This document shows, piece by piece, positions 22,898 to 59,479 of a stretch of 59,479 nt of DNA. How positions within the stretch are numbered: position 1 is the stretch's first letter; the number at the start of each line of letters is the position of its first letter. The position numbers and the translations under genes are program-made. The notes under the pieces were generated by a model that saw only the letters and a program-made list of their open reading frames with translations, did not search any database and was not told the DNA's origin. The stretch covers positions 1-59,479 of the forward strand of contig JBFLYA010000002.1 of the NCBI GenBank assembly GCA_040757115.1. The letters are read 5' to 3'. The stretch is from a bacterium (GTDB taxonomy: Bacteria > UBA9089 > CG2-30-40-21 > SBAY01).

Positions 22898-23575
22898 ATG
22901 AGAAAAATATTTTTTAAAGGGGTTAATCAACTAATTCTTTTTTTATGGGGGATAATCTTTATTGTTTCTTCAGCTTATGCTATCCCCAGCCTTCAATTGT
23001 ATATTCCAGGCTCTACTTACGACCCTATCACTGAGTCCTGGACCACTACTGCTTCTGATTTTGAACTGCAAGTTCTGGGAGCCTCATCTCCACATAATGC
23101 TGATTATATAAAGAATGTCACTCTTTATATTGCTATAAATGAGAACGAAAAGGGATTGCCAGGAGCCTATGTAAATATCAACGGTTCTCCAATAGATTTT
23201 AACTACTATGGCAACCCATTCTTGATGCCTCCTCATGGTATCTATCCAACCTATTATCGTGCTTATTGGCTACCTAATTTAATGGTTAGTACAGCCGGGG
23301 AGATTGTCCATAATTATAATCCTGGTGGGAGTGGAACAGATTTGGGGGATATTCATTATCTCTCGATAAACTGGGGTGGTTATAGCCGTATTCATTTTGA
23401 TCTAGCGGGTATTGTTGTGAACAAATATGGGAAAAAATACTATAGAAGGGCGCCTTTCTCTCATGATGCTGAAGTAAATTCACCACCCCCGGCACCTGTT
23501 GTTCCAGAACCTTCAACTATGTTACTTTTATTGCCTGGTTTGTTAGGATTGGCAAATTTCAGAAGGAGTATCTAA
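22898..23575 (+). CDS. PEP-CTERM sorting-domain secreted protein
   Basis: Signal peptide. The C-terminus VPEPSTMLLLLPGLLGLANFRRSI shows the PEP motif, a hydrophobic helix and a basic tail. Confidence 0.8.
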   Translation: MRKIFFKGVNQLILFLWGIIFIVSSAYAIPSLQLYIPGSTYDPITESWTTTASDFELQVLGASSPHNADYIKNVTLYIAINENEKGLPGAYVNINGSPIDFNYYGNPFLMPPHGIYPTYYRAYWLPNLMVSTAGEIVHNYNPGGSGTDLGDIHYLSINWGGYSRIHFDLAGIVVNKYGKKYYRRAPFSHDAEVNSPPPAPVVPEPSTMLLLLPGLLGLANFRRSI

Positions 23576-33346: not shown

Positions 33347-35110
33347 TTATGATGTCTTCTGATAAATAAATATCTTTCCATCTCCTGGAGAATCAAATTC
33401 TTTTATTTTAACATAAGAATCTTTAAATGTTTTTAAATTAGTTATTGGTTTTTCGAATTTTTTAAAGAGAACAGATTCCTTATCATGAAATATTATATAG
33501 TTAGGCTTATATTTATAAAACCAATAGGTCATATCCTGCTTCATGAGGTGATAAGCTATCTCTCTAGGCATAACTAATCCACAGATATCAACCATTCTTC
33601 GTTGACTATAATATCCAACAATACCTATTTCAACAGCTGCCACTGAGACATTTTGAGGAGTATTTCTCTTCAACCATAATCCAACTTCTCGATATTGGAG
33701 ATAATATTCCGAAGGTAAACTTTTATACTCTTTATAGTCTATTTTAATAAGTGGAAAGATTACTATCAATAATATGAGAAAAAATGTTATTATTCTAAGT
33801 AATTTAGTTCTGAGATATGGATTGAAGATTAACCATTCACAACCCAGCCCAAGGAAATAACCCGTGGGTAAAAACAAAGGTATATAATATTGATGGTAAG
33901 GAGGAACATTTAATAAAGAATATGCGGTATAATATAAAATCATCCACATAAAAATTGAGATATCCAGAAGTCTTTTTTGATAAAGATGTAATATTCCAAA
34001 AAAGAATGGAACGGTTAGAAGAAGAACAAGAATATCCTTTCTTAAATAATAATCTATCTCATAAAAAATCCCTCCACAGAAGTTTAGTTTCCAATAGCCT
34101 GCTTTACCTTGACAAATTTTTGCATATAGGGTATTGGGTGTAATTGAACCAAAATATAGATAAAGGAAGAGTAAAAATGGTAATAATATTAATCCAAATA
34201 AGACTAATGATTTGAAAGGAATCTTCTTTGAATTTATTGAATATATACCATATAAAACTATGGCTAAAATAATACCATCTCCTCGTGTTAAGTAAAGTAA
34301 AGCCAAACAGATACCCATTGGCATTAATTTATTTTTCTCATAAAAATATAATGAAAGTATCATTAACATTAAATAAAGCATTGATTCTAATCCATAAGAT
34401 TGAATTAGATATGGATTTATTGTGATGAAAACAGAGCTAATTATTCCTCCTAAAATTCTCTTTTTATTGTAGAATATTAAAAATAAAAAATATGATGCAA
34501 AAAATAGTGAAATGGTATTTATTACTCTGGCAGCAAGTGGAATATCTTTATAAAAGAAACTACCTATCACATAGAGAATAGTATTTAAAGTGGATGTGGT
34601 ACCATTAATATGTTCACCTAAATTATATACCCAGCCTTGTCCTGAAAGGATATTATTCACATACCGAAATATAATGTAAGGGTCATCTTTTTCTAATCCA
34701 ACTGGTAAAAAAATAGCTATAATGATTACAACTACTGATAAGAATAGTGGATAAAACCACTTTAAGTACTTTTTAAAAAATCTTTCCCTACCTATCTCTA
34801 AAAACTTTTTATCCTCTGGAAGTTGGATTTCAAAGAGATTTTTAAAGGTAAATTTTCTTAAGAGAACTCCAAGATACAGGCATATAACTCCTAAGGATAT
34901 CATTTGAAAGATTAAAAAAATGAGGATAGGATATATTTCCCTTTCTGCACTTGGGTCAAATCCCTTTACAAAGTGGATAATTATTGTTTTGAAATATAAA
35001 AACATATCTTCTTTGAAAAAGAATAAGACTGTTGATAAAATTAATAAAATTATACCCAATATCATAAGAATTTTTGGTATTAACCCCTTTTTATTGAAAT
35101 TATCTCTCAT
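33347..35110 (-). CDS. Polytopic membrane protein, possible GT-C-fold glycosyltransferase
   Basis: 587 aa with at least 12 hydrophobic segments and a soluble C-terminal ~130 aa. No motif I can name with certainty. Confidence 0.5.
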   Translation of the reverse strand: MRDNFNKKGLIPKILMILGIILLILSTVLFFFKEDMFLYFKTIIIHFVKGFDPSAEREIYPILIFLIFQMISLGVICLYLGVLLRKFTFKNLFEIQLPEDKKFLEIGRERFFKKYLKWFYPLFLSVVVIIIAIFLPVGLEKDDPYIIFRYVNNILSGQGWVYNLGEHINGTTSTLNTILYVIGSFFYKDIPLAARVINTISLFFASYFLFLIFYNKKRILGGIISSVFITINPYLIQSYGLESMLYLMLMILSLYFYEKNKLMPMGICLALLYLTRGDGIILAIVLYGIYSINSKKIPFKSLVLFGLILLPFLLFLYLYFGSITPNTLYAKICQGKAGYWKLNFCGGIFYEIDYYLRKDILVLLLTVPFFFGILHLYQKRLLDISIFMWMILYYTAYSLLNVPPYHQYYIPLFLPTGYFLGLGCEWLIFNPYLRTKLLRIITFFLILLIVIFPLIKIDYKEYKSLPSEYYLQYREVGLWLKRNTPQNVSVAAVEIGIVGYYSQRRMVDICGLVMPREIAYHLMKQDMTYWFYKYKPNYIIFHDKESVLFKKFEKPITNLKTFKDSYVKIKEFDSPGDGKIFIYQKTS

Positions 35111-35994: not shown

Positions 35995-37485
35995 TCATTC
36001 CAGGTCAATATTTTTTTCATAACAAATTACCTCAAGCCCTGAAAACTTTTTACTATCAATTCTCCGATAGTTTTTGTCAAAATAACTTTTAGTCAAATTT
36101 TCAGGGTCACTTTCCCATAAACGCCCTAATATTAACCATACTCTCCTATATTTCTGAAGTTCCTGTTTAGCTTTGTTAGAAATTTTAGAATTGATGAATA
36201 TTTGATTGGCCATAAATGAATATCTCTGTAACCATCCTGAATAATAGTAGTTAAATGGCACCAGCAGGGAAGGAGCAGTGATTAAAATTACATCATTTAA
36301 AATAGCATTTGTCCCAATATATTTAGTTACCTCTCGATAATCTTCCTTCGCATATTTTTCATTAAAATAATAATTATTTAATGAGAACGAACTACATAAA
36401 ATGAGCAATAATATAAAGCAAGCCCGATATCCCTTCCTTTTAACATGAGATATTCCACTAGCTAAAATAAGATAATATGCAGGTAAAGACATACAGACAT
36501 ATCTTACATTATAGGTAATATTAGTGTGTTGAACGATTAAAAACGACCCTAACATTGGTATTCCCAGATGTAGGAGTAAAAAAATTGCTTTTTCTTTATC
36601 CTTTACTAATGCTTGAAGACCTACGATAAAGATTACTCCAAATATAATTGTCACAGGAATAAGTTCAAACAAATATGGTAAACACAAAGAGATAGAATGA
36701 TACAGATGTAATTCAGCTATCGATGGACCTACTGAAAATCCCACACTAAAAGCAAAAAAAGTATATGGAAATACCATAATACCTATATTTTGGGCAAACC
36801 CTGCCGAATTGTTTATCAGGTTTATATAGATAAACATCCACGGTAAATAAAATAAACCAATTACGACTTGAGATAGTACCAATTTCTTGAAGACACATTG
36901 ATATTTTTTCCACATTAAAACCATAAATGAATTTTCAAAAATTATGAGAAAGATTATATATGGATGGGTATAAAGCCCTAAGGTAGTTGTTAACACATAT
37001 CCTGACCAGGCAAGATAATAATTTTCTCTAATAGATTTTAAGAAAAATATTACTGAAGTTATTGATAATAATATGACTAAAGAATACATCCTGACTTCCT
37101 GGGAATACCAAATATGAAAGGAAGAGATAGATATAAGTAAGGCACTAATTAACCCAATTTCTTTATTAAATAGCAATCTTCCTAATAGAAAGAACAGATA
37201 AATACTTGCTGTTCCCAATATAGATGGTAGTAATCTCATAGCAAATTCACTTTTACCAAAATACAACCAGTAGTGAAGTAAAATATGAAAGAAAGGAGGA
37301 AGATTATCAGCACTTGCTTTAATATTTTCAATTATTGTAGCCGCAGGTTTTTCTGAGATATTTATTTGGACTACTTCATCAAGCCATAGACTTTGACTTC
37401 CCAGGTGGTAAATTCGTAAAAAAAATCCTATCATTAAAATAATTATTATAAAAATCTTAGTTTTATCAAAGCGAGTAGTTAACAT
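35995..37485 (-). CDS. GT39 / PMT_2 (ArnT-like) GT-C glycosyltransferase
   Basis: LGSQSLWLDEVVQ motif in the first loop; polytopic. I moved the start to Met43 (ATG 37485). The track ORF (to 37611) would add a non-membrane leader overlapping the divergent gene. Confidence 0.75.
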   Translation of the reverse strand: MLTTRFDKTKIFIIIILMIGFFLRIYHLGSQSLWLDEVVQINISEKPAATIIENIKASADNLPPFFHILLHYWLYFGKSEFAMRLLPSILGTASIYLFFLLGRLLFNKEIGLISALLISISSFHIWYSQEVRMYSLVILLSITSVIFFLKSIRENYYLAWSGYVLTTTLGLYTHPYIIFLIIFENSFMVLMWKKYQCVFKKLVLSQVVIGLFYLPWMFIYINLINNSAGFAQNIGIMVFPYTFFAFSVGFSVGPSIAELHLYHSISLCLPYLFELIPVTIIFGVIFIVGLQALVKDKEKAIFLLLHLGIPMLGSFLIVQHTNITYNVRYVCMSLPAYYLILASGISHVKRKGYRACFILLLILCSSFSLNNYYFNEKYAKEDYREVTKYIGTNAILNDVILITAPSLLVPFNYYYSGWLQRYSFMANQIFINSKISNKAKQELQKYRRVWLILGRLWESDPENLTKSYFDKNYRRIDSKKFSGLEVICYEKNIDLE

Positions 37486-37587
37486 ATAATTACCTTCATA
37501 AACTTTTTCCTTTATAGGATAGCATAATTTAGAAGAAAATGCAACTATTTTTTGTTGACATAGCTGGAATTGTGAATTATAATAATT

Positions 37588-38784
37588 ATGATGAAGGTTC
37601 TGGTCATACATGATAATTGTAGTATTGGTGGTGGAGCCAATATATATCGAAAAAAACTATCTGAGTTGTTAGAAAAAGAAGGGGTGAAGACATTTGTCTT
37701 TACTTATGCCAGTCAAGAAGAGGATAAAGAGACCTATTATTGTTATCATCCCCCTGGTGGAATAAAATTTATTCGATATATCCATAAATACCTTAATCTA
37801 TTTATCAGTTTAAGAAAATGGATAAATAAGATAAAGCCGGATATTATCCACATTCATCATAATTACATTTTTACCAACACCATCCTCCTGGCGTGTCGAA
37901 ATAAGGTCCCTATTATCCAGACAGTGCACGATTATAGATTTATCTGCCCCATTGGCACCGGCGTGAAGAAGGTAAAAAAAGAGATTTGTTCTCATTATCA
38001 AGGGTTTGGAATTTTGTGTTATCTTGAAGGATGTATTTCTTTAAGAGATTTCATCCGCCAATTTATACTGAAGAAAATTAATAAGTATCTATTAAAGAAG
38101 GTCGTAACTTTATTTATTGCTCCCTCTATGTTTATGAAGAATGCCCTGAAGGATTATGGATTAGAGGCGTTATTTATCCCTTTTGGCATAGATTATTCAA
38201 AATACGAGGGGATTTCTCCGGCTGGCCAACAATACAGAGTGCTTTTTATCGGCGACCTATATCGCAGTAAAGGAGTGGACATACTATTAAAGGCATTTTG
38301 CCGGGTCAGCAAGATTATCCCTAGGGCAAGATTAGATATAGTCGGCGATGGTCCGATAAAAGAAGAATTGAAAAATGAATGCCAAAGGCTAAATCTCCAG
38401 AATAATGTTACCTTTTATGGTCGTATGCCTGATGATGAGACGCTAAAGTTTTATTCTAAAACTAATGTTGTTGTGTTACCCTCTATTGTCCTTGAAAATA
38501 GCCCATTGATTATCTATGAGGCGATGGCAGCGGCAAGACCCATCATCGGAAGCAGAATCGGTGGCATTCCAGAATTAATCATTGAAGAAGAAACCGGGCT
38601 TTTATTTACCCCTGGTGATACACAAGAATTGAGTGAAAAGATATTGCAAACCTTGACGGATAAAGATAAGGCAACTAAAATGGGTATGGCTGGCAGGAAA
38701 AAGGTCGAATCACAATTCGGTCAACAAAAATTCCTACAAGAATATCTTAAAATATTTAATGAGTTGGTTAATGAAAAATCATAA
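37588..38784 (+). CDS. Glycosyltransferase family 4
   Basis: SIVLENSPLIIYEAMAAARPIIGSRIGGIPELIIEEETGLLF (the EX7E region). Confidence 0.88.
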   Translation: MMKVLVIHDNCSIGGGANIYRKKLSELLEKEGVKTFVFTYASQEEDKETYYCYHPPGGIKFIRYIHKYLNLFISLRKWINKIKPDIIHIHHNYIFTNTILLACRNKVPIIQTVHDYRFICPIGTGVKKVKKEICSHYQGFGILCYLEGCISLRDFIRQFILKKINKYLLKKVVTLFIAPSMFMKNALKDYGLEALFIPFGIDYSKYEGISPAGQQYRVLFIGDLYRSKGVDILLKAFCRVSKIIPRARLDIVGDGPIKEELKNECQRLNLQNNVTFYGRMPDDETLKFYSKTNVVVLPSIVLENSPLIIYEAMAAARPIIGSRIGGIPELIIEEETGLLFTPGDTQELSEKILQTLTDKDKATKMGMAGRKKVESQFGQQKFLQEYLKIFNELVNEKS

Positions 38785-39449: not shown

Positions 39450-39623
39450 TCAGCCTCGTAGAGGCGTCCTGGGTGTAGTAGTAGGGTCAGGTGACCTTAC
39501 TATTACTACTCTACCGTAAATTAAAAAGGAGGGTAACTATTCACCACGAAGAGCACGAAGAACACGAAATGGAATTTAATGTCTTGTAATTTTCGGTAGT
39601 GTCTGACAATAACTACAATTTTT

Positions 39624-41231: not shown

Positions 41232-41711
41232 TTTGTGGCTAATTTTCCTAATTCTCTGTGAACTCTATACCTCTGTGGCTGAACGCTTACCAATCCCGTA
41301 CCTGTTTAGCGTGGTCAGAGAGTACAAATGAATGGTACTGACTTAGTGCGAAACCACTTCAAACACAGCAGGTTGTGTAATACAAAATCAAAAATTAAAT
41401 ATTAAAATGCAAAATTACAAATCAAATTTCAAAAAGGACTTCAAGTATTTTAACGCTGAAAGGAAAGAGATAATTTTACTGAACTTTGGCAAAGATAGTT
41501 TATAGTTTATAGTTGATACTTATCAGATAGTAGATAGTTGATAGTTGAAGGACTATAGACTATAAACTATAAACCATAAACTATAAACGAGTTTTGCATT
41601 TTGCTCTTTGGAGGAAATTGATAAAAATAAAGGTTTTAAATACCTGCTTAAAAACTACAGTTTCCTAATTTTGCAGAACTCTAATGGACAATTAATAAAA
41701 GGAGGAAAAGT

Positions 41712-47767: not shown

Positions 47768-48568
47768 TTGAGCAATAGGATTGACTTAAAATTTCAAGAA
47801 CTTAAGGCAAAAAAACAGAAGGCATTAATTACATTCATTACGGCAGGTGACCCCAGTTTTGAACTTACTTATGAATTAGTGCTCAAATTAGAAAAAAGTG
47901 GGGCAGATATAATTGAACTTGGCGTGCCTTTCTCCGACCCATTAGCGGATGGACCGGTAATTCAAGCCTCATCAGAACGGGCATTGAAGAACAAAACATC
48001 TCTGACAAAGGTACTGGATTTAGTCAAAGTCCTTCGCAACATTTCTCAGATTCCCATCGTGTTACTTAGTTATTATAACCCTATTTATAAATACGGGGTA
48101 TCTCAATTTGTCAAAGATGCAAGTTTTGTTGGTGTAGATGGTGTGATTATCCCTGATTTACCACCAGAAGAGGCAGAAGAATTGAGAGATGAAGCTCAAT
48201 CAAAAAACTTAGCCACTATATTTTTGTTAGCACCGACAAGCACATCAAAGAGAATAAAATTGATTAGTCGAACATCCAGCGGATTTATCTATTATGTTTC
48301 CTTAACAGGAATAACAGGTATGCGTGAAAAATTAGAAGGAACATTAGAAGATGTTTTAAGGCAAATTCGACTAATAACGAATAAACCTATTGCCGTGGGA
48401 TTTGGCATATCAACAAAAGAGCATGTGCATAAGGTTACCTCGATAGCAGATGCCGCTATTGTCGGCAGTGCAATCGTTAATCTTATAGCTAAACATGAAA
48501 AAGACCTCAATCTGGTCAATCTCGTAGGCGATTTTGTCTCAAACTTATCTTCCGGGAAATATCAATAA
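47768..48568 (+). CDS. trpA: Tryptophan synthase alpha chain TrpA
   Basis: TTG start after an AAGGAGAG RBS. ITAGDP and ELGVPFSDPLADGPVIQ. Confidence 0.93.
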   Translation: MSNRIDLKFQELKAKKQKALITFITAGDPSFELTYELVLKLEKSGADIIELGVPFSDPLADGPVIQASSERALKNKTSLTKVLDLVKVLRNISQIPIVLLSYYNPIYKYGVSQFVKDASFVGVDGVIIPDLPPEEAEELRDEAQSKNLATIFLLAPTSTSKRIKLISRTSSGFIYYVSLTGITGMREKLEGTLEDVLRQIRLITNKPIAVGFGISTKEHVHKVTSIADAAIVGSAIVNLIAKHEKDLNLVNLVGDFVSNLSSGKYQ

Positions 48569-48569
48569 A

Positions 48570-50525
48570 ATGATTGTTATCTTTTTATCATTTTTTATAA
48601 TCCTAACTAATCTTTTCTTATTAGCATTTACACTTTTAGAAAAAAGAAGTAGTCTCAGAACAACTTACTCATCTCTTCTATCTACCTTAACCCTCTGGAT
48701 TTTGGGTTTTGGGACATCATCACTTTTTTTAGATGAAACCAATGTTCTTATCTGGCTAAGATGTTCTTATACAGGACTTATATTCTTTCCTGTCATCTTC
48801 TTCCATTTTGTCCTATCGTTAACTATGAACCATTCTAAATTCCCTACTATATTAAAGCAAGCGGGATATTCCCTCAGTCTAATATTTGGTATTTTAAATC
48901 TCTTAGGTGGACTTATTCAAGGAGTAATCTTTAAAGACGGCTTTTATTATCCAGATATTGGGGTGTTCTATTACTATTATGGAATATATTTTATCCTTTT
49001 TATCTTGTATGGAAATTGGTTGTTATATCAAAGATATAACAAGACTAAAAGTGTTATAGAAAAGGAAAGGTTAAAATATTTACTCATAGGAAGTTGTTGT
49101 GGAATATTAAGCAGTCTTTCCAATATGGGCATTGATTTTTTTAAAATGCTATATTTAGTAGAATATTTGACCATTGTTATTTTTAACTTGTTCATAAATT
49201 ATGTCTGTATCAAGTATAAATTAATAGAATTAAATATATTTATAAGGCGAGAACATCTCCATTACCTGACATCAACTATTTTAGTCGGACTAATTGCTTT
49301 TATTATTTTAGTTGGACAGAGATTATTTCCATCTAATTTTTTTCTATTAAGCATGATACTGGCTATTGGTTTCGGCTTAAGTTTTCATTTAGTCAGTAGA
49401 ACAATTAGCCAATTTATAGAAAGGCGATTTTTTAAAGAAACATTCGATAAAAAAGAGTTCCTGAAAAGATTTTCTCAAAATATTACCTCTACATTTGATA
49501 AAAATTTGCTTCTTCCATCAATACTTGATGTCCTGGTAAATATTATGGAGATTAAAACAGCCTTGATAATACTTTATTCCCCGGATGAGGAAGAATGTAA
49601 AGTAGATTTTGATATGGGATTAAGTGAGACAAAGAGGCGTAAGGCGATATTCTCAAAAACAAAGGGGATGATTAAATGGTTTAGCGAGAATAAAAAAACA
49701 CTTCTGAAAGAGAATCTACGATTAGACCCCAGATTTGAAAATGTCTTTCAAGATATAGAAAATGATCTTGAAAAGGTAGAGAGTATCTTAGCCATACCGC
49801 TGGTTGGGAAAGAAGGGTTAAGGGGGATAGTTTGTTTAGGTGAGAAAGAAAATTTGCAGGGATATAATGATGAGGATATAGCCTTCCTGAATACATTTTG
49901 TGACGAAACTACGGTTGCCCTTGAAAATACATTTTTGTATGAAGAGAAGATGAAATATTTTTTAAATACCATTTTGACTTTATTATTCACGATAGAGGCA
50001 AAAGATAAATATACTAAAGGGCATTGTGAAAATGTAGGGCGATATGCGGCAATCGTGGCACAGGCACTTGGACTCTCTCCCACAGAAGTAGAAAATATTA
50101 AAATTGGTGGCTATCTCCATGATATTGGTAAAATTGGTATTGATGACAAAATTCTACTTAAACCAGGACAACTTACAGGGGATGAATTCGAACAAATTAA
50201 AAAACACCCGGAGATTGGCGTGAAAATATTGGAAGCGATTAATCTCCCAGGAGATATTATCGATGCCGTTAAGTACCACCATGAACGAATTAGTGGAAAT
50301 GGCTACCCAAACTCCTTAACCAAAGATGGAGAACCTTCTTTGCCTTTAGCCGCCTCCATTATTGGTATCGTAGATTCTTATGAGGCAATGACATCTGATA
50401 GACCTTATCGAAAGGCATTTAGTAAAGAAGATGCCATCCTTGAATTAGAAAGAGGAAGTGAAAAATTGTATGACCCTAAAATAGTTGAGGTGTTCATTAA
50501 ATTAGTCAAGGAAGGAAAGATATGA
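48570..50525 (+). CDS. 7TM-sensor / GAF / HD-GYP domain protein
   Basis: About 7 N-terminal TM segments, a GAF-like middle, HDIGKIGIDDKILLKPG and HHERISGNGYPNSL. I used ATG 48570 rather than the track TTG 48534, which overlaps trpA. Confidence 0.82.
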   Translation: MIVIFLSFFIILTNLFLLAFTLLEKRSSLRTTYSSLLSTLTLWILGFGTSSLFLDETNVLIWLRCSYTGLIFFPVIFFHFVLSLTMNHSKFPTILKQAGYSLSLIFGILNLLGGLIQGVIFKDGFYYPDIGVFYYYYGIYFILFILYGNWLLYQRYNKTKSVIEKERLKYLLIGSCCGILSSLSNMGIDFFKMLYLVEYLTIVIFNLFINYVCIKYKLIELNIFIRREHLHYLTSTILVGLIAFIILVGQRLFPSNFFLLSMILAIGFGLSFHLVSRTISQFIERRFFKETFDKKEFLKRFSQNITSTFDKNLLLPSILDVLVNIMEIKTALIILYSPDEEECKVDFDMGLSETKRRKAIFSKTKGMIKWFSENKKTLLKENLRLDPRFENVFQDIENDLEKVESILAIPLVGKEGLRGIVCLGEKENLQGYNDEDIAFLNTFCDETTVALENTFLYEEKMKYFLNTILTLLFTIEAKDKYTKGHCENVGRYAAIVAQALGLSPTEVENIKIGGYLHDIGKIGIDDKILLKPGQLTGDEFEQIKKHPEIGVKILEAINLPGDIIDAVKYHHERISGNGYPNSLTKDGEPSLPLAASIIGIVDSYEAMTSDRPYRKAFSKEDAILELERGSEKLYDPKIVEVFIKLVKEGKI

Positions 50526-51394
50526 AAAACGATAAGATTACCTGGATATTTTTTATCTTACTTTTAGCCGGCGTAATAGGCGGGATATTTAACCTCCTTC
50601 GATTATCCCAGTTCCCTGTAAAAAAAAGAGAGGTTACGGTTAAGGAAAAAATAAGACTCGAAAAGCAACTCCAACCACTTCCGACTAAAATTAAACCTGT
50701 TTACCAAAAACCAATTCCTGCTCAACCATCTAAACCGAATAGATTTGGAACCGTTAGTATCTTAAGCTCTCCAGCCGGAGCAAAGATATATCTTGACACT
50801 ATCCTGCAAACTAAAATTACACCAATGGTTTCTAAAATTAAAACAGGGGCACATCAGATAAAATTAGTTAAAAATGGTTATCAACCATATCAATCAGAAA
50901 TAATAATAAAACAAGGATTAACAACCTGCATAAATGCTAAATTAGAATTATCTTCGGCAAGTGTATTTATTAACTCAACTCCTCAAGGGGCAACTGTTTT
51001 TGTCAATAATGAAAAAAAAGGGATAACTCCTTTAACGATTTCTCCCCTAACTCCCTGGCAACCTTACCAACTACAACTTAGGTTATCTAAATATAATGAT
51101 TGGTCAGCTAATATATTTGTTGAACCAGGAGAAGAGGCAAAGATGGAAGTAACATTAAAACCCAAACCTAAAGGTTTTATTTATATAACATCTCTTCCTT
51201 CAGGGGCTATGGTATATTTAGACGATGAATTAATTGGTAAGACACCCGTGCGGGAATGGACAGTCAGGGCTGGGAATCATATACTCAAAGTCAACAAAGA
51301 AGGATTTTTTTCTGCTATAAAAAAAGTTAATGTGCCTGCGGATGAAAGTGTCTTTGTTAATTTTGAATTAACATCGGAGAGTAGTAATCAGTAA
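50522..51394 (+). CDS. Membrane-anchored PEGA-domain protein (3 PEGA repeats)
   Basis: ATGA overlap with the upstream gene. SSPAGAKIYLD, STPQGATVFVNNEKKGITPL and SLPSGAMVYLDDELIGKTPV. Confidence 0.78.
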   Translation: MKNDKITWIFFILLLAGVIGGIFNLLRLSQFPVKKREVTVKEKIRLEKQLQPLPTKIKPVYQKPIPAQPSKPNRFGTVSILSSPAGAKIYLDTILQTKITPMVSKIKTGAHQIKLVKNGYQPYQSEIIIKQGLTTCINAKLELSSASVFINSTPQGATVFVNNEKKGITPLTISPLTPWQPYQLQLRLSKYNDWSANIFVEPGEEAKMEVTLKPKPKGFIYITSLPSGAMVYLDDELIGKTPVREWTVRAGNHILKVNKEGFFSAIKKVNVPADESVFVNFELTSESSNQ

Positions 51395-51435
51395 AGAAAT
51401 TTTTCAATACTAAATAAAACTATCTACTTTTTAGA

Positions 51436-51464
51436 TTGACAAAATAAATAAATTATGGTATAGT
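51436..51464 (+). promoter_or_regulatory. Sigma-70-type promoter upstream of the DUF2079-TPR / giant protein 2 operon
   Basis: TTGACA (51436-51441), 17 nt, TATAGT (51459-51464). The ~440-nt leader contains the cassette listed next. Confidence 0.6.
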
Positions 51465-51493
51465 TTATATGAAGGTTTTGATGAAGTTAAAAG

Positions 51494-51858
51494 GTAACTA
51501 TTCACCACGAAGGACACGGAGAGCACGAAGTGAAATTTGATGAATTATCGAATTCATGAAGCTCAAATATTAACATAAATGAAAATAGTAGGCAAGTAGG
51601 TAGTAGGGAAGTAGGAAAGGGATAAAGGATGTGCACGGTATTCCTCTTTTGGGGGCAATGTCTCCCCCTTTCCTACTCTCCTACTTCCTACTTTCAGGAG
51701 AATCCCCCATTTCACTGACCCATTACCATATATGAAATTGGCAAATATCAAGGTTGGTCTATTGATAAATTTCAATGTGGAAAGATTGAAAGAAGGCATA
51801 AAGAGATTTGTTCTGTAACATCTCCCTGCCCTTCGTGCTCTTCGTAGTGAATAGTTAC
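51494..51858 (+). pseudogene. Disrupted GxxExxY-family cassette bounded by inverted repeats, with a nested IR insertion
   Basis: Termini are gtaactattcaccacgaaggacacg and cgtgctcttcgtagtgaatagttac. N-terminal fragment VKFDELSNS* (51530-51558); C-terminal fragment YMKLANIKVGLLINFNVERLKEGIKRFVL* (51729-51818). A ggtagtagggaagtaggaaaggg / ccctttcctactctcctacttcc hairpin element lies between them. Confidence 0.7.
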
Positions 51859-51905
51859 TAAATAATTTGAAAGTATGAATTCAAATTTGAGGAGAAAATA
51901 TATTA

Positions 51906-54440
51906 ATGTCAAAAAAGAAAAGATCAATTTTTTATCTATCAGATAACATCAAAATATTTATTAGTTTGTTAATAGTTCTTATATCATCTTTTTCAGTAGG
52001 ATTATTTATATGGAATCTTTGTTATCCTGGTAATCTATCTTCCTTTTTATCTATATTTATATTTTCTCTTAAAGAAATTCATACTCAGTCACTTTTAAGA
52101 TTTTTAATGACCTCTGGAATTTATTTTATTATAATCTGGGTTATCATCTCATTTTTTATTAATAAGGTTACTAAAGATAATTTAAAAGATGTGTTGATAA
52201 GAGATGGGTTGAGTTACCTTCCATGTTTAGTTTTAATTCCAGCTGCCTTCTTACAAACTTTTTTCCCTCAATTACCCAACTTTACTCTCTACCAATCTTT
52301 TATTTTTGTTCTTATAGGAGGAAGTATTCTACCTGTTAAGTTGTTTCTTTTCCCTAATTTTAAAATATCTATTTCTTCTCGATTTTCACTAATAGTAATT
52401 AGTTTTCTTATAATATCTTATATAGCCATTTTTACACTTATAAGTTTTACTAAATTAGATAAATTTTTATATGGATTATGTGATTTAGGGATGTTTACTC
52501 ATGTGATGTGGAATACTATTAATGGCAAAATATTATACTTCCAAGTTTTTGGTAAAGGTATTAATTTTTTAGGAGAGCACATGTCTCCTATCTTATTATT
52601 ACTTGTTCCTTTTTACTGGGTTTATCCAGACCCGAAAACATTGTTGTTTATCCAAACAGTGCTTATTTCATTTGGTGCTATACCTGTATACTTAATTGCT
52701 ATAAGTGTATTAAAAGATAGATTTGCAGGTTTATGTTTTGTAGTTGCCTATCTATTTTATCCATTTACTGGGAGGGTTAATCTATTTGAATTTCATGAGG
52801 TATGTTTTGTTATCCCATTTCTTTTATTTTGTTTTTATTTTCTACAAAGAAGAAATTATAAATTATATTATCTTTTTATGATATTATCATTATCTGTAAA
52901 AGAAGAGATAAGTATCGCTATTTTTATGATAGGGTTATATGCATTTTTAGTAATGAGAGAAAAAAAATTGGGGTTAATTACTATAGTTATATCTATAATC
53001 TGGGCTCTTTTAGCAATAAAGGTTCTTATACCATTTTTTAGAGGAGGGGAAGAATATTCTCATATCCAAAGATATGTTACCGAAGGTGGTGGAGGATTTC
53101 TCCAAATAATTCAATATTATCTTAAGCATCCATTATTAACTTTAAAAAATGCCTTTGGAAATATTCAAATAGTAACTTTATGCTTATTGTTAGTACCTCT
53201 TGGGCTTTTACCTTTATTTGCACCAAAGGTTTTATGTTTAGCTTTTCCTTTAATACTTCTTCATTTCCTATCTACATTTGAATTACAACAGGCACTTCAA
53301 TGGCAATATTCTGCTTCTATTATTCCCTTCCTTATAATTGCTGGAATATATGGATTAAGGAATATAATTATTGGAATAGGGGAAAAAACATCTTATTTAA
53401 CATCCAAAAGACAAATTAAAGCAAAAGATAATAAAAAAAATATTATATCACTATTAGGAGAAAAAAGAATTACTTTTATAGGTGCAAGTTTTATCCTATC
53501 TACTTCTGTTATAGGAAGTTATTTTTTTTCTCATCCTCCATTTTTAAAATTAACAACATGGGAAGGATGGGAATTTAATAATTATAAGAGATTTCTCTCT
53601 TTATCATTATCTCCCAAAGATTATTCTACTTCTATTCACCGCAGGTTATACTTTGAGATTAAAAAGATTATTTCGGATAAAGCCAGTTTGTCAGTTCAGG
53701 ATAGTTTAGCTCCAGAGTTATGTAATCGAGAAAATGTATATCAATACCCTTCTTGTAGTCCAGAAATTGAATACTTTTTTTTAGATGTTTCAACTAATTT
53801 TATAAGGACAGGAAGTTTTTGGGAAACTTATAAAAATAACTTATCAGCACTTTTAAATGATGTTAATTATCAACTCCTATTTTATGGAGATGGATTTTAT
53901 TTATTTTGTAAAAAAGAGAATTGGAATGAAAATATCCTTTTAAGATATGAAAAAGCATTAGAAAAAAAACCTAAAAGATGGGAAAGATTTTATGTAATAG
54001 GTGTGGTTTATTCTTTATTAGGTAAATGGAGTGAGGCAAAAGAAATGTTTAAATCCTCCTCAGAAATTGACCTAAATCTTACTATCAAATATCTTCATGA
54101 ACTTGGAAATTTCCATTATGAGAAAAAAGAATTAGAGAAATGTATGAGTATATTTGAATTAATTGTAGAATTAAATCCTAAATATGAGGATATAGAAATG
54201 TATAACAGGTTAGCTAGAATTTATCATCATAAGGGAATGATCGATAAAACTATCATTATAGCACAAAAAATTATAAAGATTGATCCTAAAAATATCAAAG
54301 TTTATAACAACTTAGGTTTACTTTATTATAAAAAAGGATTATCTCATAAAGCAAGGGAATTATTTAATAATGTCTTAAAACTTGACCCGCATAATTCCGA
54401 TGCTAACAAAATGTTACAGATAATATCAAATAAATTTTAA
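51906..54440 (+). CDS. DUF2079-family polytopic membrane protein fused to C-terminal TPR repeats
   Basis: CDLGMFTHVMWNTINGK fits the DUF2079 N-terminal signature. More than 12 TM segments. TPRs at the C-terminus (YNRLARIYHHKGM.., YNNLGLLYYKKGLSHKA..). Confidence 0.7.
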   Translation: MSKKKRSIFYLSDNIKIFISLLIVLISSFSVGLFIWNLCYPGNLSSFLSIFIFSLKEIHTQSLLRFLMTSGIYFIIIWVIISFFINKVTKDNLKDVLIRDGLSYLPCLVLIPAAFLQTFFPQLPNFTLYQSFIFVLIGGSILPVKLFLFPNFKISISSRFSLIVISFLIISYIAIFTLISFTKLDKFLYGLCDLGMFTHVMWNTINGKILYFQVFGKGINFLGEHMSPILLLLVPFYWVYPDPKTLLFIQTVLISFGAIPVYLIAISVLKDRFAGLCFVVAYLFYPFTGRVNLFEFHEVCFVIPFLLFCFYFLQRRNYKLYYLFMILSLSVKEEISIAIFMIGLYAFLVMREKKLGLITIVISIIWALLAIKVLIPFFRGGEEYSHIQRYVTEGGGGFLQIIQYYLKHPLLTLKNAFGNIQIVTLCLLLVPLGLLPLFAPKVLCLAFPLILLHFLSTFELQQALQWQYSASIIPFLIIAGIYGLRNIIIGIGEKTSYLTSKRQIKAKDNKKNIISLLGEKRITFIGASFILSTSVIGSYFFSHPPFLKLTTWEGWEFNNYKRFLSLSLSPKDYSTSIHRRLYFEIKKIISDKASLSVQDSLAPELCNRENVYQYPSCSPEIEYFFLDVSTNFIRTGSFWETYKNNLSALLNDVNYQLLFYGDGFYLFCKKENWNENILLRYEKALEKKPKRWERFYVIGVVYSLLGKWSEAKEMFKSSSEIDLNLTIKYLHELGNFHYEKKELEKCMSIFELIVELNPKYEDIEMYNRLARIYHHKGMIDKTIIIAQKIIKIDPKNIKVYNNLGLLYYKKGLSHKARELFNNVLKLDPHNSDANKMLQIISNKF

Positions 54441-54458
54441 ACAGAAGGTAAATAAAAA

Positions 54459-57400
54459 ATGTGGAAAAAGATAAAAGTGGTAGTTTATTTATTAATAATA
54501 GGAAGTTTCTTTAACATAGAAATAGGAGAAGCAGTGGAAGTAAATGGTAATCAAAGTGGTATATGGAGTTTAAGTAATAGCCCTTATGTAGTGACAGGTA
54601 CTGTTACTGTCCTTTCTGGGGAAACACTTGTCATTGAGCCCAAGGTAGAAGTGAGATTTGCTACTAATACTTCGTTGGTGGTTTGTGGAACATTATCAGC
54701 TATTGGTACACTTGATGGAACGATTACTTTTACATCTAATGCAGGTACACCTACTCCAGGTAATTGGAATAGTATTAAATTTAGTGGTGTCCAGAGTAAA
54801 GGAACAATTAGTTATTCTCTTATAGAATATGGTAAACAAGCGATTTATTTAGAAAATGTTTCCAAAATTACTGTTACTCATAATACAATTAGAAATAATA
54901 AAGGTGATGACGGTTCTATATGTGCAGATGGTGAAATAGGAGCAGGAATTTGTCTCTTTTCATCCACCAATAATACTCTTGCCGGAAATATTATTTCAAA
55001 TAATCAAGGGGGGCAAGGTGGACCAGCTGATTATGGAATCTCAGGTGGTGAAGGAGGTATAGGTGCAGGAATATACTTATTATCTTCGACCAATACTACT
55101 ATCATAGATAATATCATCTCCAATAATAATGGTGGAGAAGGCGGTCAAGGTGCTGATCGCGCGGCAGGTGGCCACGGAGGTAGTGGTGTAGGGATTTACT
55201 TAGAATCATCCACTAATAATACTATTACAGATAACACCATCTCTAATAATAATGGTGGGCAAGGAGGGAGAGAGGGATTTCTATTCTCTTCAGCAGGTGG
55301 AGGAGGTATTGGTGCAGGGATATATTTATCATCAAATACTAATATTATTACAGGTAATACCATCTCTAATAATAGTGGTGGTGGTGGTGGTAGTGGTAAT
55401 GGTTTGGGTGCAGGTGGTGCAGGCGGTATTGGTGTAGGAATATATTTAATCTCATCAACAAATGTTACCATATCAACTAACACTATTTCCTATAATCAAG
55501 GTGGTCAAGGAGGACCAGGCGGTGACCACGGTGCAGGTGGTGCAGGCGGTATTGGTGTAGGAATATATTGGCAACAATCGACTAATAATACTATTACAAA
55601 TAATACAATATCTGATAATAGAGGAGGACAAGGAGGAGGTAGTGGTAGTGAGAATTTAGGAGGTGGTGGAGGTAAAGGTGTAGGAATGTATTTATCATCA
55701 TCCACTAATAATACTATTACAGGTAATACCGTCTCTAATAATAGAGGAGGAGATGGAGGATCAGGTGGTTTTAAAAGTCCAGGAGGAACAGGAGGTACTG
55801 GTGGAGGAATACATTTATTCTCATCGACTCACAATACTATTACAAGTAACACTATTTCCAATAATAGTGGTGGTAAAGGAGGGGGGCCAAATGGTAGTCA
55901 TGGGAATGGTTATGGTATCTATATTGATTCCAATAGTTATAATAATATCATTGATTCTAATAATACTTACAATGGTGAACCTATCCATTATTACTATGGA
56001 ATTACTCTACCAACTACAGTTGAAAATCGAACTTTGACACTTACAGGTTCTGGTTCAACCAATCTGGGGAGGATTGTGTTAATTAATTGCTCAAATTTTA
56101 CTATTAGGAACAATTATATTACTGGTGGAATAGGGGAAAATGGTCAAACAGGAGGTGGATATGATTACCCCGGAGGTACAGGAAGTATTGGTGCAGGAAT
56201 ATACTTATCATCATCCACTAATAATACTATTACAGGCAATACCATCTCTGGTAACAGGGGTGGTCAGGGAGGAGCAGCTGGACCTCATGGCTCAGGAGGG
56301 TTAGGAGGTATTGGCGTTGGGATATATTTATTATTATCTACTAATAATACCATTAAAGGTAATACCATCTATAATAATAGTGGTGGTGAAGGAGGAGCAG
56401 GCTACGAAATTGGTTCAAGAGGGAGAGGGGGAAGTGGTGTAGGAATCTATTTAGATTCATCTTCCAGTAATACCATTGCCCAGAACAATACTATTACTAA
56501 TAACATTGGTGGTGCCGGTAATCCAGATGGGAATGGAGTAGGTATTTATTGTAAATCTTCACAAATCTCTCCACTTATTTACAATCATATTTATAACAAC
56601 CAAACTTACAACCTCCAAACAGACATATCTCCCGGTCCCCAGATAGCCGAATATAACTGGTGGGGTTCTGATCCACCTGAGATATCTAAGTTCTCGGGTA
56701 ATATCGATTATGACCCATGGCTTAGGGGTACTTATACTACACAAATTATGATTTCTCCTGTAGCGGGGACGGTAGGGACTATCGTTACCGTCTCAGGTCA
56801 AGGATTTGGAGAAAATGAATTAATTAGCATAGAATTTGGAACAACTGGCACTATTACCACGGGTAGTACTAATATTTTAGGTACATTCACTACTATTTTT
56901 ACGGTTAATACCCAACCTTACGGCACTACTACAGTAAGGGCGGTTGGGGTAGATTCGAACAGGTCCTCTGAAATGGTATTTTGCATCCTGCCAAAAATAT
57001 TTATGGTTAGTCCTACGATAGGAACAGTAGGAACCTTTATCACGGTAAGGGGTAATGGATTTGGGGCAACAGAATCTATTTGTATTGATTTTGGCACTAC
57101 CAAAACTATTATAGTTACTTTCTCTACCCACAGTGGAAACTTTACTACTATATTTACCGTAAATAGTCAACCATTAGGCACAACAACTATTATAGGAAAA
57201 GGTATGCTCTCAGAATGTTTTGCAATAGAAATTTTTTATATCTTGCCACCAACAATATTGAAGATTACCCCTGCCATACAGAATATTGCTGTTAATTCAA
57301 CATTTACCTGCCAGGTCGAGATAGAGGATGTAAGTAATTTAGTGGCAGGTGATTTGTATATTAGCTATGACTCTAATATCCTTGAAGTAACAGGAGTAGG

Positions 57401-59479
57401 TAGCGGCACATTTCCACCCAATTGTAATGCAGTAAGTAAAATTACTGCTGGTAAGATAGATTACTCCTTTGGATTATTCTCTGGCTCTGCTACTGGCTCA
57501 GGAATACTCTGCTTTTTACATTTTAAAGCGATTGCAGGTGGGACATCAAGTGTAGCAATTGATACAACCCAAGACCGCAAAACAATATTACTTAAAATTG
57601 ATATAGACACCCCAGAGGAAATCCCGTTTACTAAAGAAGATGCGATATATTATGTAATTAGTAAGATTAAAATTAAACCTCAGGATAAAATAATAAAGGC
57701 AGATGAGGATGTTGAATATCAATGTATTGGAGAGTGTGGTAGTGGGTTAGAACTTGATGTTACTGGCTCTACTACCTTTAGTTCAAATGGAGGTGGCTCA
57801 TTTACACTTAATACCTTCCATGCAAAATATATGAGTACATACACAATTCAAGGGGAATATCTTGGATTTATTGGAACTACATCAGTGATTATCCTACCTG
57901 GCACTCCAACAACTTTAGTTTATGTCTCAGGAAATGGTCAGGTTAATACCTGTACCTTTACCTTAAAAGACCCATTTATAGTTAAGGTAGTGGATAAATA
58001 TGAAAACCCTTGCCAGGATGTAGAGGTAAAGTGGGAAATTATCTCTATCCCTTCTGGTGCAACTTTATATTCTATCTCTCCAACTAATACTACAACCAAT
58101 GCTCAAGGGACAGTTTCATCTTTCCTTACCTTAGGTACAGAACCTCCAGGAACATATACCATACATGCAATATCAACTGGGCTATCAGGCTCTCCTTGTA
58201 TCTTTACTGCCCATTCATTAAGACGATTTGGCAATATAGCTGGTTTTTGTTTGTTGAAGTTAGGCACTATTTCCTTAGGTACATGCTCAGATATTCGGGT
58301 AAGGATTGTAGAGCTTGGGACAACTACAATGACTAATGATAGTTCTTACTTCATATTTGAGAATATACCAGTAGGAACCTACACCCTTAACTTTGATACC
58401 TGGGGAGCATCTCCATCAACTAAGACCAATATTTGTATTAGTCCAACACAATTTGAAGATACTACTTACATTGGTACTATTACGCTATTAGCAGGAGATG
58501 TAAATAATGATGGTCAGGTAAATATTGGAGATTGGCCGTTATTTGCAGATGCATGGCGAGAGAAGGCAACTAAAACTCATACCAATTGGGAGCTATATAA
58601 AGAGGCAGATTTTAATCATGATAGTAAAGTAGATGCATACGATTTTATTGTTATTAGAAATAATTTTGGTGAACAACAAAAAGGTAAGGCTAAAGAATTA
58701 ATTGCGATGTCCACAAAGGCTAAAAAGACCTCTGGTAAAATAGAGTTATCTTTTGACCTTGAGACACTTGAAGGGGTAGATATTAACGAGTTGCGTGTTG
58801 GGAATATTATCTATCTTAAAATATATGTTCGTGATGCAAAAGACTACCTTGGTGGTGAAATCCATCTTGCTTTTAATCCAAAGGTATTACAAGTAATAGA
58901 TGCGGATAACAGCAAAGATGGTATCCAGATTCAACCAGGGGATTTTCCACAAGGTTCATTAAATTATACACCTGTTGAACTAAAGAATGAAGTAGATAAT
59001 TTAGTTGGTAAGATTGATTATGCAGTAGCAGTTTGGGAACCAGAGCAAGGAGAGAAGGGGATATTAGCTATTGTCCCATTTAAGGTAATCTCTTGCGGTG
59101 CTTATTCTAAAGTTAATTTTGAGTTTGATGATGAAGAAAACCGCGAAACAAAGTTTATCGAAAGAATTGGTCAGGAACAACCTGTTGACCAGCAACCTGA
59201 GGTATTAGATGAGGAAATAATTATCAAAGTGCCAGCGGTATTTAATAATTTAGAGGGTGCATTGGTCTATCCCAATCCTGCTTATAAAGGGCAAGAGGTA
59301 ACCTTTGATCAGCTTACTACGGATAAGCAAATTACCTTAAGAATTTATAGCCTTGCAGGGGAATTAGTATTTGAAAAGAGTGGAATGAATGAAATCAAAT
59401 GGAACCTAAAGAATAAAGATAACGAAGATGTTGCCTCAGGTATTTATATCTATTTTTTAAAGGATGAACTCGGCTCGGT
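54459..59479 (+). CDS. Giant secreted surface protein 2, paralogue of 13053-18260; 3'-partial at the window end
   Basis: Not in the ORF track. I read ATG 54459 (GAAGG RBS, 18 nt after the upstream stop) through to 59479 in one frame without meeting a stop. Signal peptide MWKKIKVVVYLLIIGSF. Domain order matches paralogue 1, but with 8+1/3+1 beta-helix modules and 2 IPT-like domains. Confidence 0.88.
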   Translation, partial: MWKKIKVVVYLLIIGSFFNIEIGEAVEVNGNQSGIWSLSNSPYVVTGTVTVLSGETLVIEPKVEVRFATNTSLVVCGTLSAIGTLDGTITFTSNAGTPTPGNWNSIKFSGVQSKGTISYSLIEYGKQAIYLENVSKITVTHNTIRNNKGDDGSICADGEIGAGICLFSSTNNTLAGNIISNNQGGQGGPADYGISGGEGGIGAGIYLLSSTNTTIIDNIISNNNGGEGGQGADRAAGGHGGSGVGIYLESSTNNTITDNTISNNNGGQGGREGFLFSSAGGGGIGAGIYLSSNTNIITGNTISNNSGGGGGSGNGLGAGGAGGIGVGIYLISSTNVTISTNTISYNQGGQGGPGGDHGAGGAGGIGVGIYWQQSTNNTITNNTISDNRGGQGGGSGSENLGGGGGKGVGMYLSSSTNNTITGNTVSNNRGGDGGSGGFKSPGGTGGTGGGIHLFSSTHNTITSNTISNNSGGKGGGPNGSHGNGYGIYIDSNSYNNIIDSNNTYNGEPIHYYYGITLPTTVENRTLTLTGSGSTNLGRIVLINCSNFTIRNNYITGGIGENGQTGGGYDYPGGTGSIGAGIYLSSSTNNTITGNTISGNRGGQGGAAGPHGSGGLGGIGVGIYLLLSTNNTIKGNTIYNNSGGEGGAGYEIGSRGRGGSGVGIYLDSSSSNTIAQNNTITNNIGGAGNPDGNGVGIYCKSSQISPLIYNHIYNNQTYNLQTDISPGPQIAEYNWWGSDPPEISKFSGNIDYDPWLRGTYTTQIMISPVAGTVGTIVTVSGQGFGENELISIEFGTTGTITTGSTNILGTFTTIFTVNTQPYGTTTVRAVGVDSNRSSEMVFCILPKIFMVSPTIGTVGTFITVRGNGFGATESICIDFGTTKTIIVTFSTHSGNFTTIFTVNSQPLGTTTIIGKGMLSECFAIEIFYILPPTILKITPAIQNIAVNSTFTCQVEIEDVSNLVAGDLYISYDSNILEVTGVGSGTFPPNCNAVSKITAGKIDYSFGLFSGSATGSGILCFLHFKAIAGGTSSVAIDTTQDRKTILLKIDIDTPEEIPFTKEDAIYYVISKIKIKPQDKIIKADEDVEYQCIGECGSGLELDVTGSTTFSSNGGGSFTLNTFHAKYMSTYTIQGEYLGFIGTTSVIILPGTPTTLVYVSGNGQVNTCTFTLKDPFIVKVVDKYENPCQDVEVKWEIISIPSGATLYSISPTNTTTNAQGTVSSFLTLGTEPPGTYTIHAISTGLSGSPCIFTAHSLRRFGNIAGFCLLKLGTISLGTCSDIRVRIVELGTTTMTNDSSYFIFENIPVGTYTLNFDTWGASPSTKTNICISPTQFEDTTYIGTITLLAGDVNNDGQVNIGDWPLFADAWREKATKTHTNWELYKEADFNHDSKVDAYDFIVIRNNFGEQQKGKAKELIAMSTKAKKTSGKIELSFDLETLEGVDINELRVGNIIYLKIYVRDAKDYLGGEIHLAFNPKVLQVIDADNSKDGIQIQPGDFPQGSLNYTPVELKNEVDNLVGKIDYAVAVWEPEQGEKGILAIVPFKVISCGAYSKVNFEFDDEENRETKFIERIGQEQPVDQQPEVLDEEIIIKVPAVFNNLEGALVYPNPAYKGQEVTFDQLTTDKQITLRIYSLAGELVFEKSGMNEIKWNLKNKDNEDVASGIYIYFLKDELGS
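56742..57241 (+). other. Two tandem IPT/TIG-like domains in giant protein 2
   Basis: IMISPVAGTVGTIVTVSGQGFGENELISIEFGTT.. and IFMVSPTIGTVGTFITVRGNGFGATESICIDFGTT.. Confidence 0.6.
58487..58670 (+). other. Dockerin-like segment in giant protein 2
   Basis: GDVNNDGQVNIGDW followed by DFNHDSKVDAYDFIVIRNNFG. Confidence 0.6.
59262..59479 (+). other. T9SS type A sorting domain of giant protein 2 (truncated by the window end)
   Basis: LVYPNPAYKGQEVTFDQ..ITLRIYSLAGELV..IKWNLKNKDNEDVASGIYIYFLKDELGS. About 90% nucleotide identity to the reverse complement of 13053-13316 by eye. Confidence 0.8.

Follow-up and report, generated by a model that had tools for sequence, protein, structure and literature searches.

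The window analysed here comprises 59,479 nucleotides, positions 1 to 59,479 of contig JBFLYA010000002.1 in the bacterial assembly GCA_040757115.1 (GTDB lineage Bacteria; UBA9089; CG2-30-40-21; SBAY01). Close to its end, it encodes an 844-amino-acid (aa) polytopic membrane protein that joins a DUF2079 domain to C-terminal tetratricopeptide repeats (TPRs), immediately followed on the same strand by the gene of a giant protein with features of a secreted cargo (giant 2). On the reverse strand, a second giant protein (giant 1) is paired with a TMEM260-like membrane protein, which also carries TPRs. The features discussed below are listed in Table 1.

Table 1. Features of the DUF2079–TPR/giant 2 locus and of the giant 1 locus, with window coordinates.
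Feature	Position	Strand	Description
Giant 1, 1741 aa	13053..18278	-	Type IX secretion system (T9SS) type A sorting domain; paralogue of giant 2
TMEM260-like GT-C + TPR gene, 774 aa	18253..20577	-	Upstream partner of giant 1; PF11028, E 5e-42
Intergenic leader, 511 nt	51395..51905	+	After the PEGA gene; interspersed repeats and GxxExxY-like remnant; about 440 nt from promoter-like site to ATG
Promoter-like site TTGACA-17-TATAGT	51436..51464	+	TG before the -10 element; 11 of 12 matches; weak evidence
DUF2079–TPR gene, 844 aa	51906..54440	+	Predicted inner-membrane GT-C-fold glycosyltransferase; Pfam PF09852, AlphaFold2, Foldseek
N-terminal extension, aa 1–150	51906..52355	+	Four predicted transmembrane helices; upstream of the Pfam DUF2079 domain (start at residue 184)
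First predicted periplasmic loop, aa 180–250	52443..52655	+	Asp193 (52482–52484), His225 (52578–52580)
Predicted periplasmic alpha/beta domain, aa 560–672	53583..53921	+	Between the last transmembrane helix and the TPRs; inside the Pfam DUF2079 model
C-terminal TPR arm, aa 675–842	53928..54431	+	10 helices, about 5 repeats; Pfam, AlphaFold2, Foldseek and PDB TPR matches
Spacer, 18 nt	54441..54458	+	acagaaggtaaataaaaa; Shine-Dalgarno-like GAAGG
Giant 2, at least 1673 aa	54459..59479	+	Signal peptide, beta-helix repeats, IPT-like modules, cohesin-like region, dockerin, partial T9SS-type C-terminal domain; cut by the window end

According to Pfam, DUF2079 (PF09852) covers residues 184–664 of the 844-aa protein (E 2.1e-63; score 215.5 bits, cut-off 28.2; model positions 2–457 of 459), and the TPR models TPR_1, TPR_2, TPR_8 and related ones match residues 675–840. 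In an NCBIfam scan the membrane part matched no model, and only TPR families appeared, all below their cut-offs. The last base of the stop codon is 54440, and giant 2 begins with the ATG at 54459. A DUF2079 protein with C-terminal TPRs that ends 18 nt upstream of giant 2, as described in the original prediction, is thus supported alike by Pfam, by AlphaFold2 and by the coordinates. Both motifs quoted in that prediction are also present, CDLGMFTHVMWN at residues 192–203 of the DUF2079–TPR protein and FHDSGDMV..HPTGYP in the TMEM260-like protein. A scan for terminator-like sites between the two genes detected none, and the two are probably transcribed together.

The signal-peptide-like N-terminus of giant 2 is followed by Beta_helix/NosD repeats, by two IPT-like modules at aa 763 and 848 and by a dockerin at aa 1345–1402; a cohesin-like region was assigned by eye and from a Cohesin match in a homologue at a related locus (L008, see below). 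At its C-terminus, where the protein is cut by the window end, CHU_C matches with 21.6 bits, below the cut-off of 27. Giant 1 passes both TIGR04183 (32.9 vs 23) and PF18962 (30.9 vs 27). Protein alignment agrees with the earlier view of the two giants as paralogues: their C-terminal 922 aa are 68% identical and their N-terminal 640 aa 46%. An IPT-type A–B strand motif ([IVLF]x[IVLFM]xPxxGxxG[TS]x[IVL]x[IVL]xGx[GN]F) is conserved in the giants and their homologues, for example at aa 763–783 and 848–868 of giant 2 and at aa 815–835 of giant 1.

A GT-C fold is predicted for the membrane domain of the DUF2079 protein. AlphaFold2 models were built on 41 homologues with 20–76% identity. The full-length model reached a mean local confidence (pLDDT) of 88.3 and a predicted template-modelling score (pTM) of 0.86, and Foldseek matched it mostly to TPR proteins, with ArnT as the sole membrane match. 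Because the TPR matches swamped this list, residues 1–672 were modelled anew (pLDDT 86.4, pTM 0.85). When this model was compared with the PDB, ranks 1–19 were all occupied by GT-C enzymes (probability 0.96–1.00, E 1e-5 to 1.3e-2). The top match was ArnT (5f15; E 9.8e-6, TM-score on target 0.51), and the others included STT3 (human, yeast and canine), PglB, AglB, the C-mannosyltransferase DPY19, ALG9 and AftA. EmbA/B/C chains appeared from rank 20 on, at E values of about 0.5 or higher, and matches outside GT-C had E values of about 0.7 or higher and probabilities of at most 0.12. Below E 0.02 the list thus holds only GT-C enzymes, in keeping with the suspected GT-C-like structure of this family. 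Sequence searches of the PDB with the DUF2079 core yielded no match at E up to 10, and by these searches no DUF2079 member has a solved structure. A more specific identity as an oligosaccharyltransferase of the PglB/STT3/AglB type was considered and rejected: neither WW nor W.D.G (WWDxG) nor D.D occurs in the sequence. The structural likeness to these enzymes is confined to the GT-C core.

Hydropathy and the positive-inside rule give a crude estimate of 13 transmembrane segments with a cytoplasmic N-terminus, a count that puts both the loop with Asp193 and His225 and the 304-aa C-terminal tail outside, in the periplasm. Asp193 is conserved in 40 of the 41 homologues, and the expected periplasm-facing acidic motif is therefore present as far as this topology estimate reaches. 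Similarly conserved are Glu333 (39/41), His225 and Gln250 (37/41 each) and Lys332 (35/41), and in the alpha/beta domain Pro615 (39/41). On the basis of this conservation, Asp193, His225, Lys332 and Glu333 are candidate active-site residues.

The model places strands of the alpha/beta domain at residues 595–597, 611–613, 623–627, 655–661 and 664–669. The four-helix N-terminal extension is shared by the window protein, by the clade proteins P0002–P0008 and by those of loci L008, L009 and L040; in P0009–P0014 it is absent or shorter. The TPR arm differs more widely within the clade, from about five repeats (window protein, P0002, P0003 and P0008) down to at most one hairpin (P0004, P0011 and P0014). 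Since the genes of these last three also precede a giant, a long arm is unnecessary for the linkage. Of the proposed substrate-recognition arm, the TPRs themselves are well established in the window protein, and its length is not a constant part of the architecture. The same repeats allow for a reading in which the protein is mainly a periplasmic chaperone or scaffold that keeps the giant competent for export, with the GT-C core as an anchor or engaged in an unrelated housekeeping activity. TPR proteins are common as secretion chaperones and scaffolds, and the NCBIfam TPR matches include PilW, Tgl, GltE, BamD-like and LcrH/SycD families. Moreover, the TPR part is a separate open reading frame (ORF) at one related locus (L012), and at another (L001) the DUF2079 gene is interrupted and the downstream beta-helix ORF is still open. 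However, the candidate catalytic residues are kept in 35–40 of the 41 sequences, those of the clade included, which argues for an active enzyme, and the single TPR-like hairpin of several giant-linked members would make a poor chaperone platform. We consider it improbable that the protein is mainly a chaperone or scaffold.

A profile search of 1.84 billion representative sequences yielded 10,284 DUF2079 relatives with E values of at most 1e-10, of which only 11 scored above 500 bits; the next best reached 363 bits. The closest homologues, with 31–76% identity to the window protein, form a distinct clade, and by sequence comparison the giant-linked clade is a small offshoot of the large DUF2079 family. 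Clade loci were retrieved with a profile of a 14-sequence clade alignment. Of the 11 clade loci with readable downstream sequence, nine have a homologous giant as the next gene in the same orientation, namely the window and L001 (98% identical), L003, L008, L040, L081, L082, L083, L084 and L085. L003 and L082 are two separate DUF2079/giant pairs within one metagenome-assembled genome (MAG), and three further clade loci lie on contigs that stop short of the downstream gene. The gap between the two genes ranges from 18 to about 420 nt across the linked loci, and, L001 excepted, their DUF2079 proteins are 31–37% identical to that of the window. The proteins downstream at L084 and L040 have a different N-terminal beta-helix type; that of L084 has no BLAST match to the giants and was linked to that of L040 by eye. 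The two clade loci that lack this arrangement are L009 and L012. At L009, a polytopic membrane protein lies downstream of the DUF2079–TPR gene, and giant-like fragments with a C-terminal sorting domain lie upstream. The downstream protein (L009:3783-5522(+), at least 580 aa) carries the motif RWNTEDAFISFRV, has no Pfam match and may be a further GT-C-like enzyme. L012, from the same MAG as L008, has no giant, and the DUF2079 core (528 aa) and the TPR part (288 aa) are separate ORFs that overlap by ATGA (L012:9821-12270(+)).

Outside the clade, no giant homologue was found in about 59 distinct DUF2079 loci. The contexts there include a pyrimidine operon (efp...pyrR-pyrB-pyrC-carA) of Actinomycetota as well as, in Anaerolineales and Thermoplasmata, glycan clusters of the GT4/epimerase type. 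Long non-clade DUF2079 proteins have sugar-binding domains or a second GT-C domain in place of TPRs. The window has about two giants among 50 genes, a density at which about 4% of loci would show the adjacency by chance. Compared with these few per cent, nine of 11 loci mean that the adjacency is conserved in the clade well beyond chance, as had been suspected, and this neighbourhood census bears out the predicted linkage of DUF2079–TPR genes to giants. The role in cargo modification that the original prediction assigned to DUF2079 as such has to be narrowed accordingly: it stands as a candidate function for a small clade of 11 among more than 10,000 clusters and cannot be extended to the whole family.

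Conserved adjacency could also lack any functional meaning and reflect an inherited gene order, reshuffled by recombination among paralogues and by assembly artefacts in repeats. The linked loci all stem from similar MAGs, interspersed repeats flank the cassettes, and giant 2 is a mosaic when compared with L001. Starting at the DUF2079 gene, the two assemblies are 98% identical as far as 1.7 kb into giant 2, after which they diverge (L001:3094-12525 compared). This first part of giant 2 corresponds to a truncated 504-aa ORF in L001, and beyond the point of divergence L001 has a stop codon, a second TMEM260–TPR gene and a 1613-aa giant, whose 3' end is 92% identical to the last 2.4 kb of giant 2. 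The aroE gene after the L001 giant is in turn 97% identical to window positions 7999–8492. As giant 2 is a mosaic, and as the window, and with it the contig, breaks off within its repeated C-terminal region, the paralogous giants may have recombined, or the repeats may have caused an assembly artefact. Neither affects the DUF2079–TPR/giant 2 junction, which is identical in the two assemblies. Against mere inheritance, the pairing is kept down to 31–37% identity of the enzymes, at nine or more loci, which stem from no fewer than seven assemblies or samples, and amid surroundings as varied as rpoBC, thiE, toxin–antitoxin genes and aroE, with the TMEM260–TPR gene moved to either side; the low rate of chance adjacency points the same way. 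An adjacency devoid of function thus appears very unlikely to us.

The TMEM260-like partner of giant 1 belongs to a family whose profile matches the cryo-EM chain of human TMEM260 (9rql_A, E 7e-39), a GT-C enzyme (PMC10214176; bioRxiv 10.64898/2026.03.17.711096). Neither BLASTP nor hhalign found any similarity between the DUF2079 and TMEM260-like cores; the only alignable part is in the TPR regions and is limited to the last TPR and a 'DPxNxYAKQML' tail. Likewise, the DUF2079–TPR protein has no Pfam match to PF11028, TMTC or PMT_2. As only the TPRs align by sequence, homology of the two cores has to be argued from the fold. TMEM260 is a GT-C enzyme and the DUF2079 core is predicted to be one, which makes the two families divergent branches of one fold superfamily. 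The membrane domains, which the original prediction took to be unrelated, are indeed so by sequence but not by predicted fold. Its idea that two families had converged on one architecture is also not borne out, as both belong to the GT-C superfamily and the fusion of GT-C and TPRs is already a recurring design (TMTC1-4, TMEM260). Judged by the structural models, this is the parallel use of one superfamily rather than a convergence of unrelated folds. Nor does each enzyme keep to a giant of its own: TMEM260–TPR genes or fragments share the DUF2079 cassette in L001, L003, L008 and L084, on either side, and these shared cassettes suggest joint action of both enzymes on one cargo family. Probably the DUF2079 and TMEM260-like enzymes put different modifications on this cargo. 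Overall, the observation behind the original prediction holds, as does its reading with regard to fold, acidic motif and linkage, but not with regard to convergence, one-to-one pairing and family-wide scope.

The IPT-type motif of the giants resembles the animal IPT region that is O-mannosylated by TMEM260 (proposed sequon ...G-P-x-x-G/A-G-G-x-x-T/S), a likeness that bears on the TMEM260-like partner of giant 1.

From the predicted fold, the TPR arm and the adjacency at nine loci, it follows that the DUF2079–TPR enzyme most likely adds a sugar to the giant. In its specific form, we propose that the 844-aa protein is a periplasm-facing GT-C glycosyltransferase that uses a polyprenyl-phosphate sugar donor and modifies the Sec-exported giant before export by a T9SS-like route, a reading to which we give an even chance. 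The giant would be exported via Sec by means of its N-terminal signal peptide. While still extended in the periplasm, an acceptor segment, possibly an IPT-like or beta-helix repeat, would be held by the TPR hairpins and the alpha/beta domain above the membrane. The transmembrane core would offer the polyprenyl-phosphate-linked sugar at the interface between membrane and periplasm, and this sugar would be passed on to the protein. Once glycosylated, the giant would leave by the T9SS-like route, to which its C-terminal sorting domain would direct it. Catalytic activity, a protein as acceptor, the identity of the donor and the timing relative to secretion are here inferred.

A GT-C enzyme of this kind could instead act on a glycan or glycolipid, for example a surface polymer to which T9SS cargo is anchored, with the TPRs docking to the secretion or assembly machinery. 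The linkage would then reflect a shared surface-display pathway and not a pair of enzyme and substrate. Most characterised bacterial GT-C enzymes do act on lipids or glycans, and the Foldseek search placed ArnT first and also found AftA and Emb. Other DUF2079 members occur in GT4/epimerase clusters or are fused to carbohydrate-binding domains, glycan enzymes are numerous in the window itself (Wzy_C, PMT_2, two YfhO, three GT4 and PIG-L), and the lineage also has a fusion of TPRs with a Wzy_C-type enzyme resembling O-antigen ligases. However, the tight co-directional pairing (18–420 nt) is specifically with the giant and includes no glycan-assembly genes. Furthermore, where other DUF2079 proteins have sugar-binding C-terminal domains or none, the clade has peptide-binding TPRs, and the family of the neighbouring TMEM260 homologue has been shown to act on proteins. 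We therefore regard a glycan or glycolipid acceptor as unlikely, though less so than a mere scaffold.

Several observations weigh against the proposed glycosylation of the giant. The Foldseek TM-scores are moderate (0.35–0.51). The position of the TPRs on the Asp193 side is derived from nothing but the crude hydropathy count, whose positive-inside pattern is broken by loop 312–323. The two exceptional loci L009 and L012 depart from the pairing, and the giant-linked loci all come from related low-GC MAGs and are not phylogenetically independent, so that part of the synteny may be merely inherited. In L001, which is 98% identical, the DUF2079–TPR gene is split into ORFs of 185 and 668 aa by an insert of about 235 bp (L001:854-1098), and the gene may accordingly be dispensable. 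Neither the window nor the compact cassettes encode a GT2 polyprenyl-phosphate sugar synthase, which leaves the donor supply unaccounted for locally. Finally, a literature search by 'DUF2079' and 'PF09852' retrieved no biochemistry for any DUF2079 protein.

The insert in L001 looks like a small mobile or MITE-like (miniature inverted-repeat transposable element) repeat: it is 96% identical to the intergenic segment 5487–5731 of the window, where positions of about 5726–5908 recur at 3131–3315 and other parts at 41300–41431. Repeats also occupy the leader of the DUF2079–TPR gene, segments of which recur at 11680–11743, 22198–22254, 22643–22711 and 39533–39577, that is, at both edges of the giant 1 cassette and elsewhere. 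Frame 2 of this leader reads ...LANIKVGLLINFNVERLKEGIKRFVL up to a stop codon, and by eye the remnant ...KVGLLINFNVERLKEGIKRFVL, likewise ending in a stop, is the C-terminal piece of a small gene of the GxxExxY/PD-(D/E)XK type. Promoter-like sites such as that in Table 1 are not in excess over shuffled sequence in the scanned region.

Polytopic glycan enzymes are abundant in the window (23602-25929(-), 26017-28404(+), 35995-37611(-), 32001-33317(-), 29531-32077(-) and 33347-35110(-)). The set comprises the two YfhO proteins, a PMT_2-type GT-C protein, the O-antigen-ligase-like Wzy_C protein, a GH39-like protein of 848 aa and a 587-aa ORF without Pfam match; the three GT4 genes and the PIG-L deacetylase gene also lie in the window. 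At L012, a 759-aa Wzy_C–TPR fusion protein (16635-18914(-)) is encoded 4 kb from the DUF2079 core. Together with DUF2079, this fusion indicates that TPR arms have been joined to several kinds of polytopic glycan enzymes in the lineage. Genes of PorV-like outer-membrane beta-barrels (11792-12718(-) and 20898-21818(-)) bracket the pair of giant 1 and TMEM260–TPR. No PorV-like gene is visible near the DUF2079/giant 2 pair, and none follows the giant or lies nearby in any related locus examined; the gene after the giant is aroE in L001 and a TMEM260–TPR gene in L008. Proteins with GAF and HD_5 (HD-GYP-type) domains adjoin both giant cassettes (8492-10618(-) and 48534-50525(+)), a PEGA-domain protein (50522-51394(+)) directly precedes the leader of the DUF2079–TPR gene, and a GAF–GGDEF protein is encoded near the DUF2079 gene of L012. 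The giant surface proteins may be under cyclic-di-GMP control. Between the giant 1 cassette and the YfhO genes lies a 225-aa ORF (22898-23575(+)) with a weak C-terminal PEP-CTERM match (E 3.5e-4). No rRNA or tRNA gene was found in the window.

With a fold assigned, with candidates for the catalytic residues and, in the case of one clade, with a neighbouring gene for a candidate substrate, DUF2079 becomes experimentally testable. We tentatively extend the proposal, with somewhat less than even confidence, to the small DUF2079 clade as a whole, which would then consist of unrecognised bacterial protein glycosyltransferases that combine GT-C and TPRs, each with its own giant and often accompanied by a TMEM260-type enzyme. 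If protein glycosylation by the DUF2079–TPR enzyme is correct, it would be the first function for DUF2079, and the giant adhesin-like proteins of these bacteria would be glycoproteins. These uncultivated low-GC bacteria would employ two GT-C–TPR enzymes that are unrelated in sequence on one cargo family, in the periplasm and prior to T9SS-like export. They would also offer a bacterial pair of enzyme and substrate for studies on domain selection by TPR arms, beside the animal TMEM260–IPT pair.

The closest known counterpart in overall design is TMEM260 (PF11028, formerly DUF2723), the protein O-mannosyltransferase acting on IPT domains. In the human enzyme (PDB 9rql–9rqn), the TPR domain is by itself sufficient for binding of the IPT acceptor peptide, and the GT-C core and a Rossmann-like 'palm' domain catalyse the reaction (bioRxiv 10.64898/2026.03.17.711096), with D441 as catalytic base. 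The DUF2079–TPR protein has the same order of GT-C core, alpha/beta domain and TPR arm, an Asp and a His in the first outward loop (D193/H225, compared to human D52/H67) and a probable client with IPT-like modules. However, Asp and His are 32 residues apart here and 15 in TMEM260, the cores belong to different Pfam families without detectable similarity, and the four-helix N-terminal extension is additional. Moreover, the host is a bacterium, and the presumed substrate is encoded beside the enzyme. TMTC1-4 (GT105) likewise fuse a GT-C membrane core to a TPR array; this luminal array is thought to select a class of protein domains, and the enzymes O-mannosylate cadherins (PMC10214176). They differ in belonging to the PMT_2/DUF1736 family, to which the DUF2079–TPR protein has no Pfam or sequence match, and in having 8–10 TPRs. 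ArnT, PglB/STT3, DPY19 and PMT provide the best structural matches and share a polytopic domain with an acidic residue in the first external loop; they use lipid-phosphate-linked sugar donors. Their identity in the structural alignments is only 9–16%, and they have no TPR arm. With the rest of DUF2079, the protein shares the Pfam domain including its alpha/beta part and the same conserved D, H, K–E and P positions, whereas those proteins typically have 450–530 aa, lack the N-terminal extension and the TPRs and have no giant as neighbour. The comparison suggests that the combination of GT-C and TPRs known from animal TMTC and TMEM260 proteins also exists in bacteria, with at least two catalytic families in one cassette. 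The locus is best described as this protein-glycosyltransferase design, realised with an uncharacterised family and with the presumed substrate encoded alongside.

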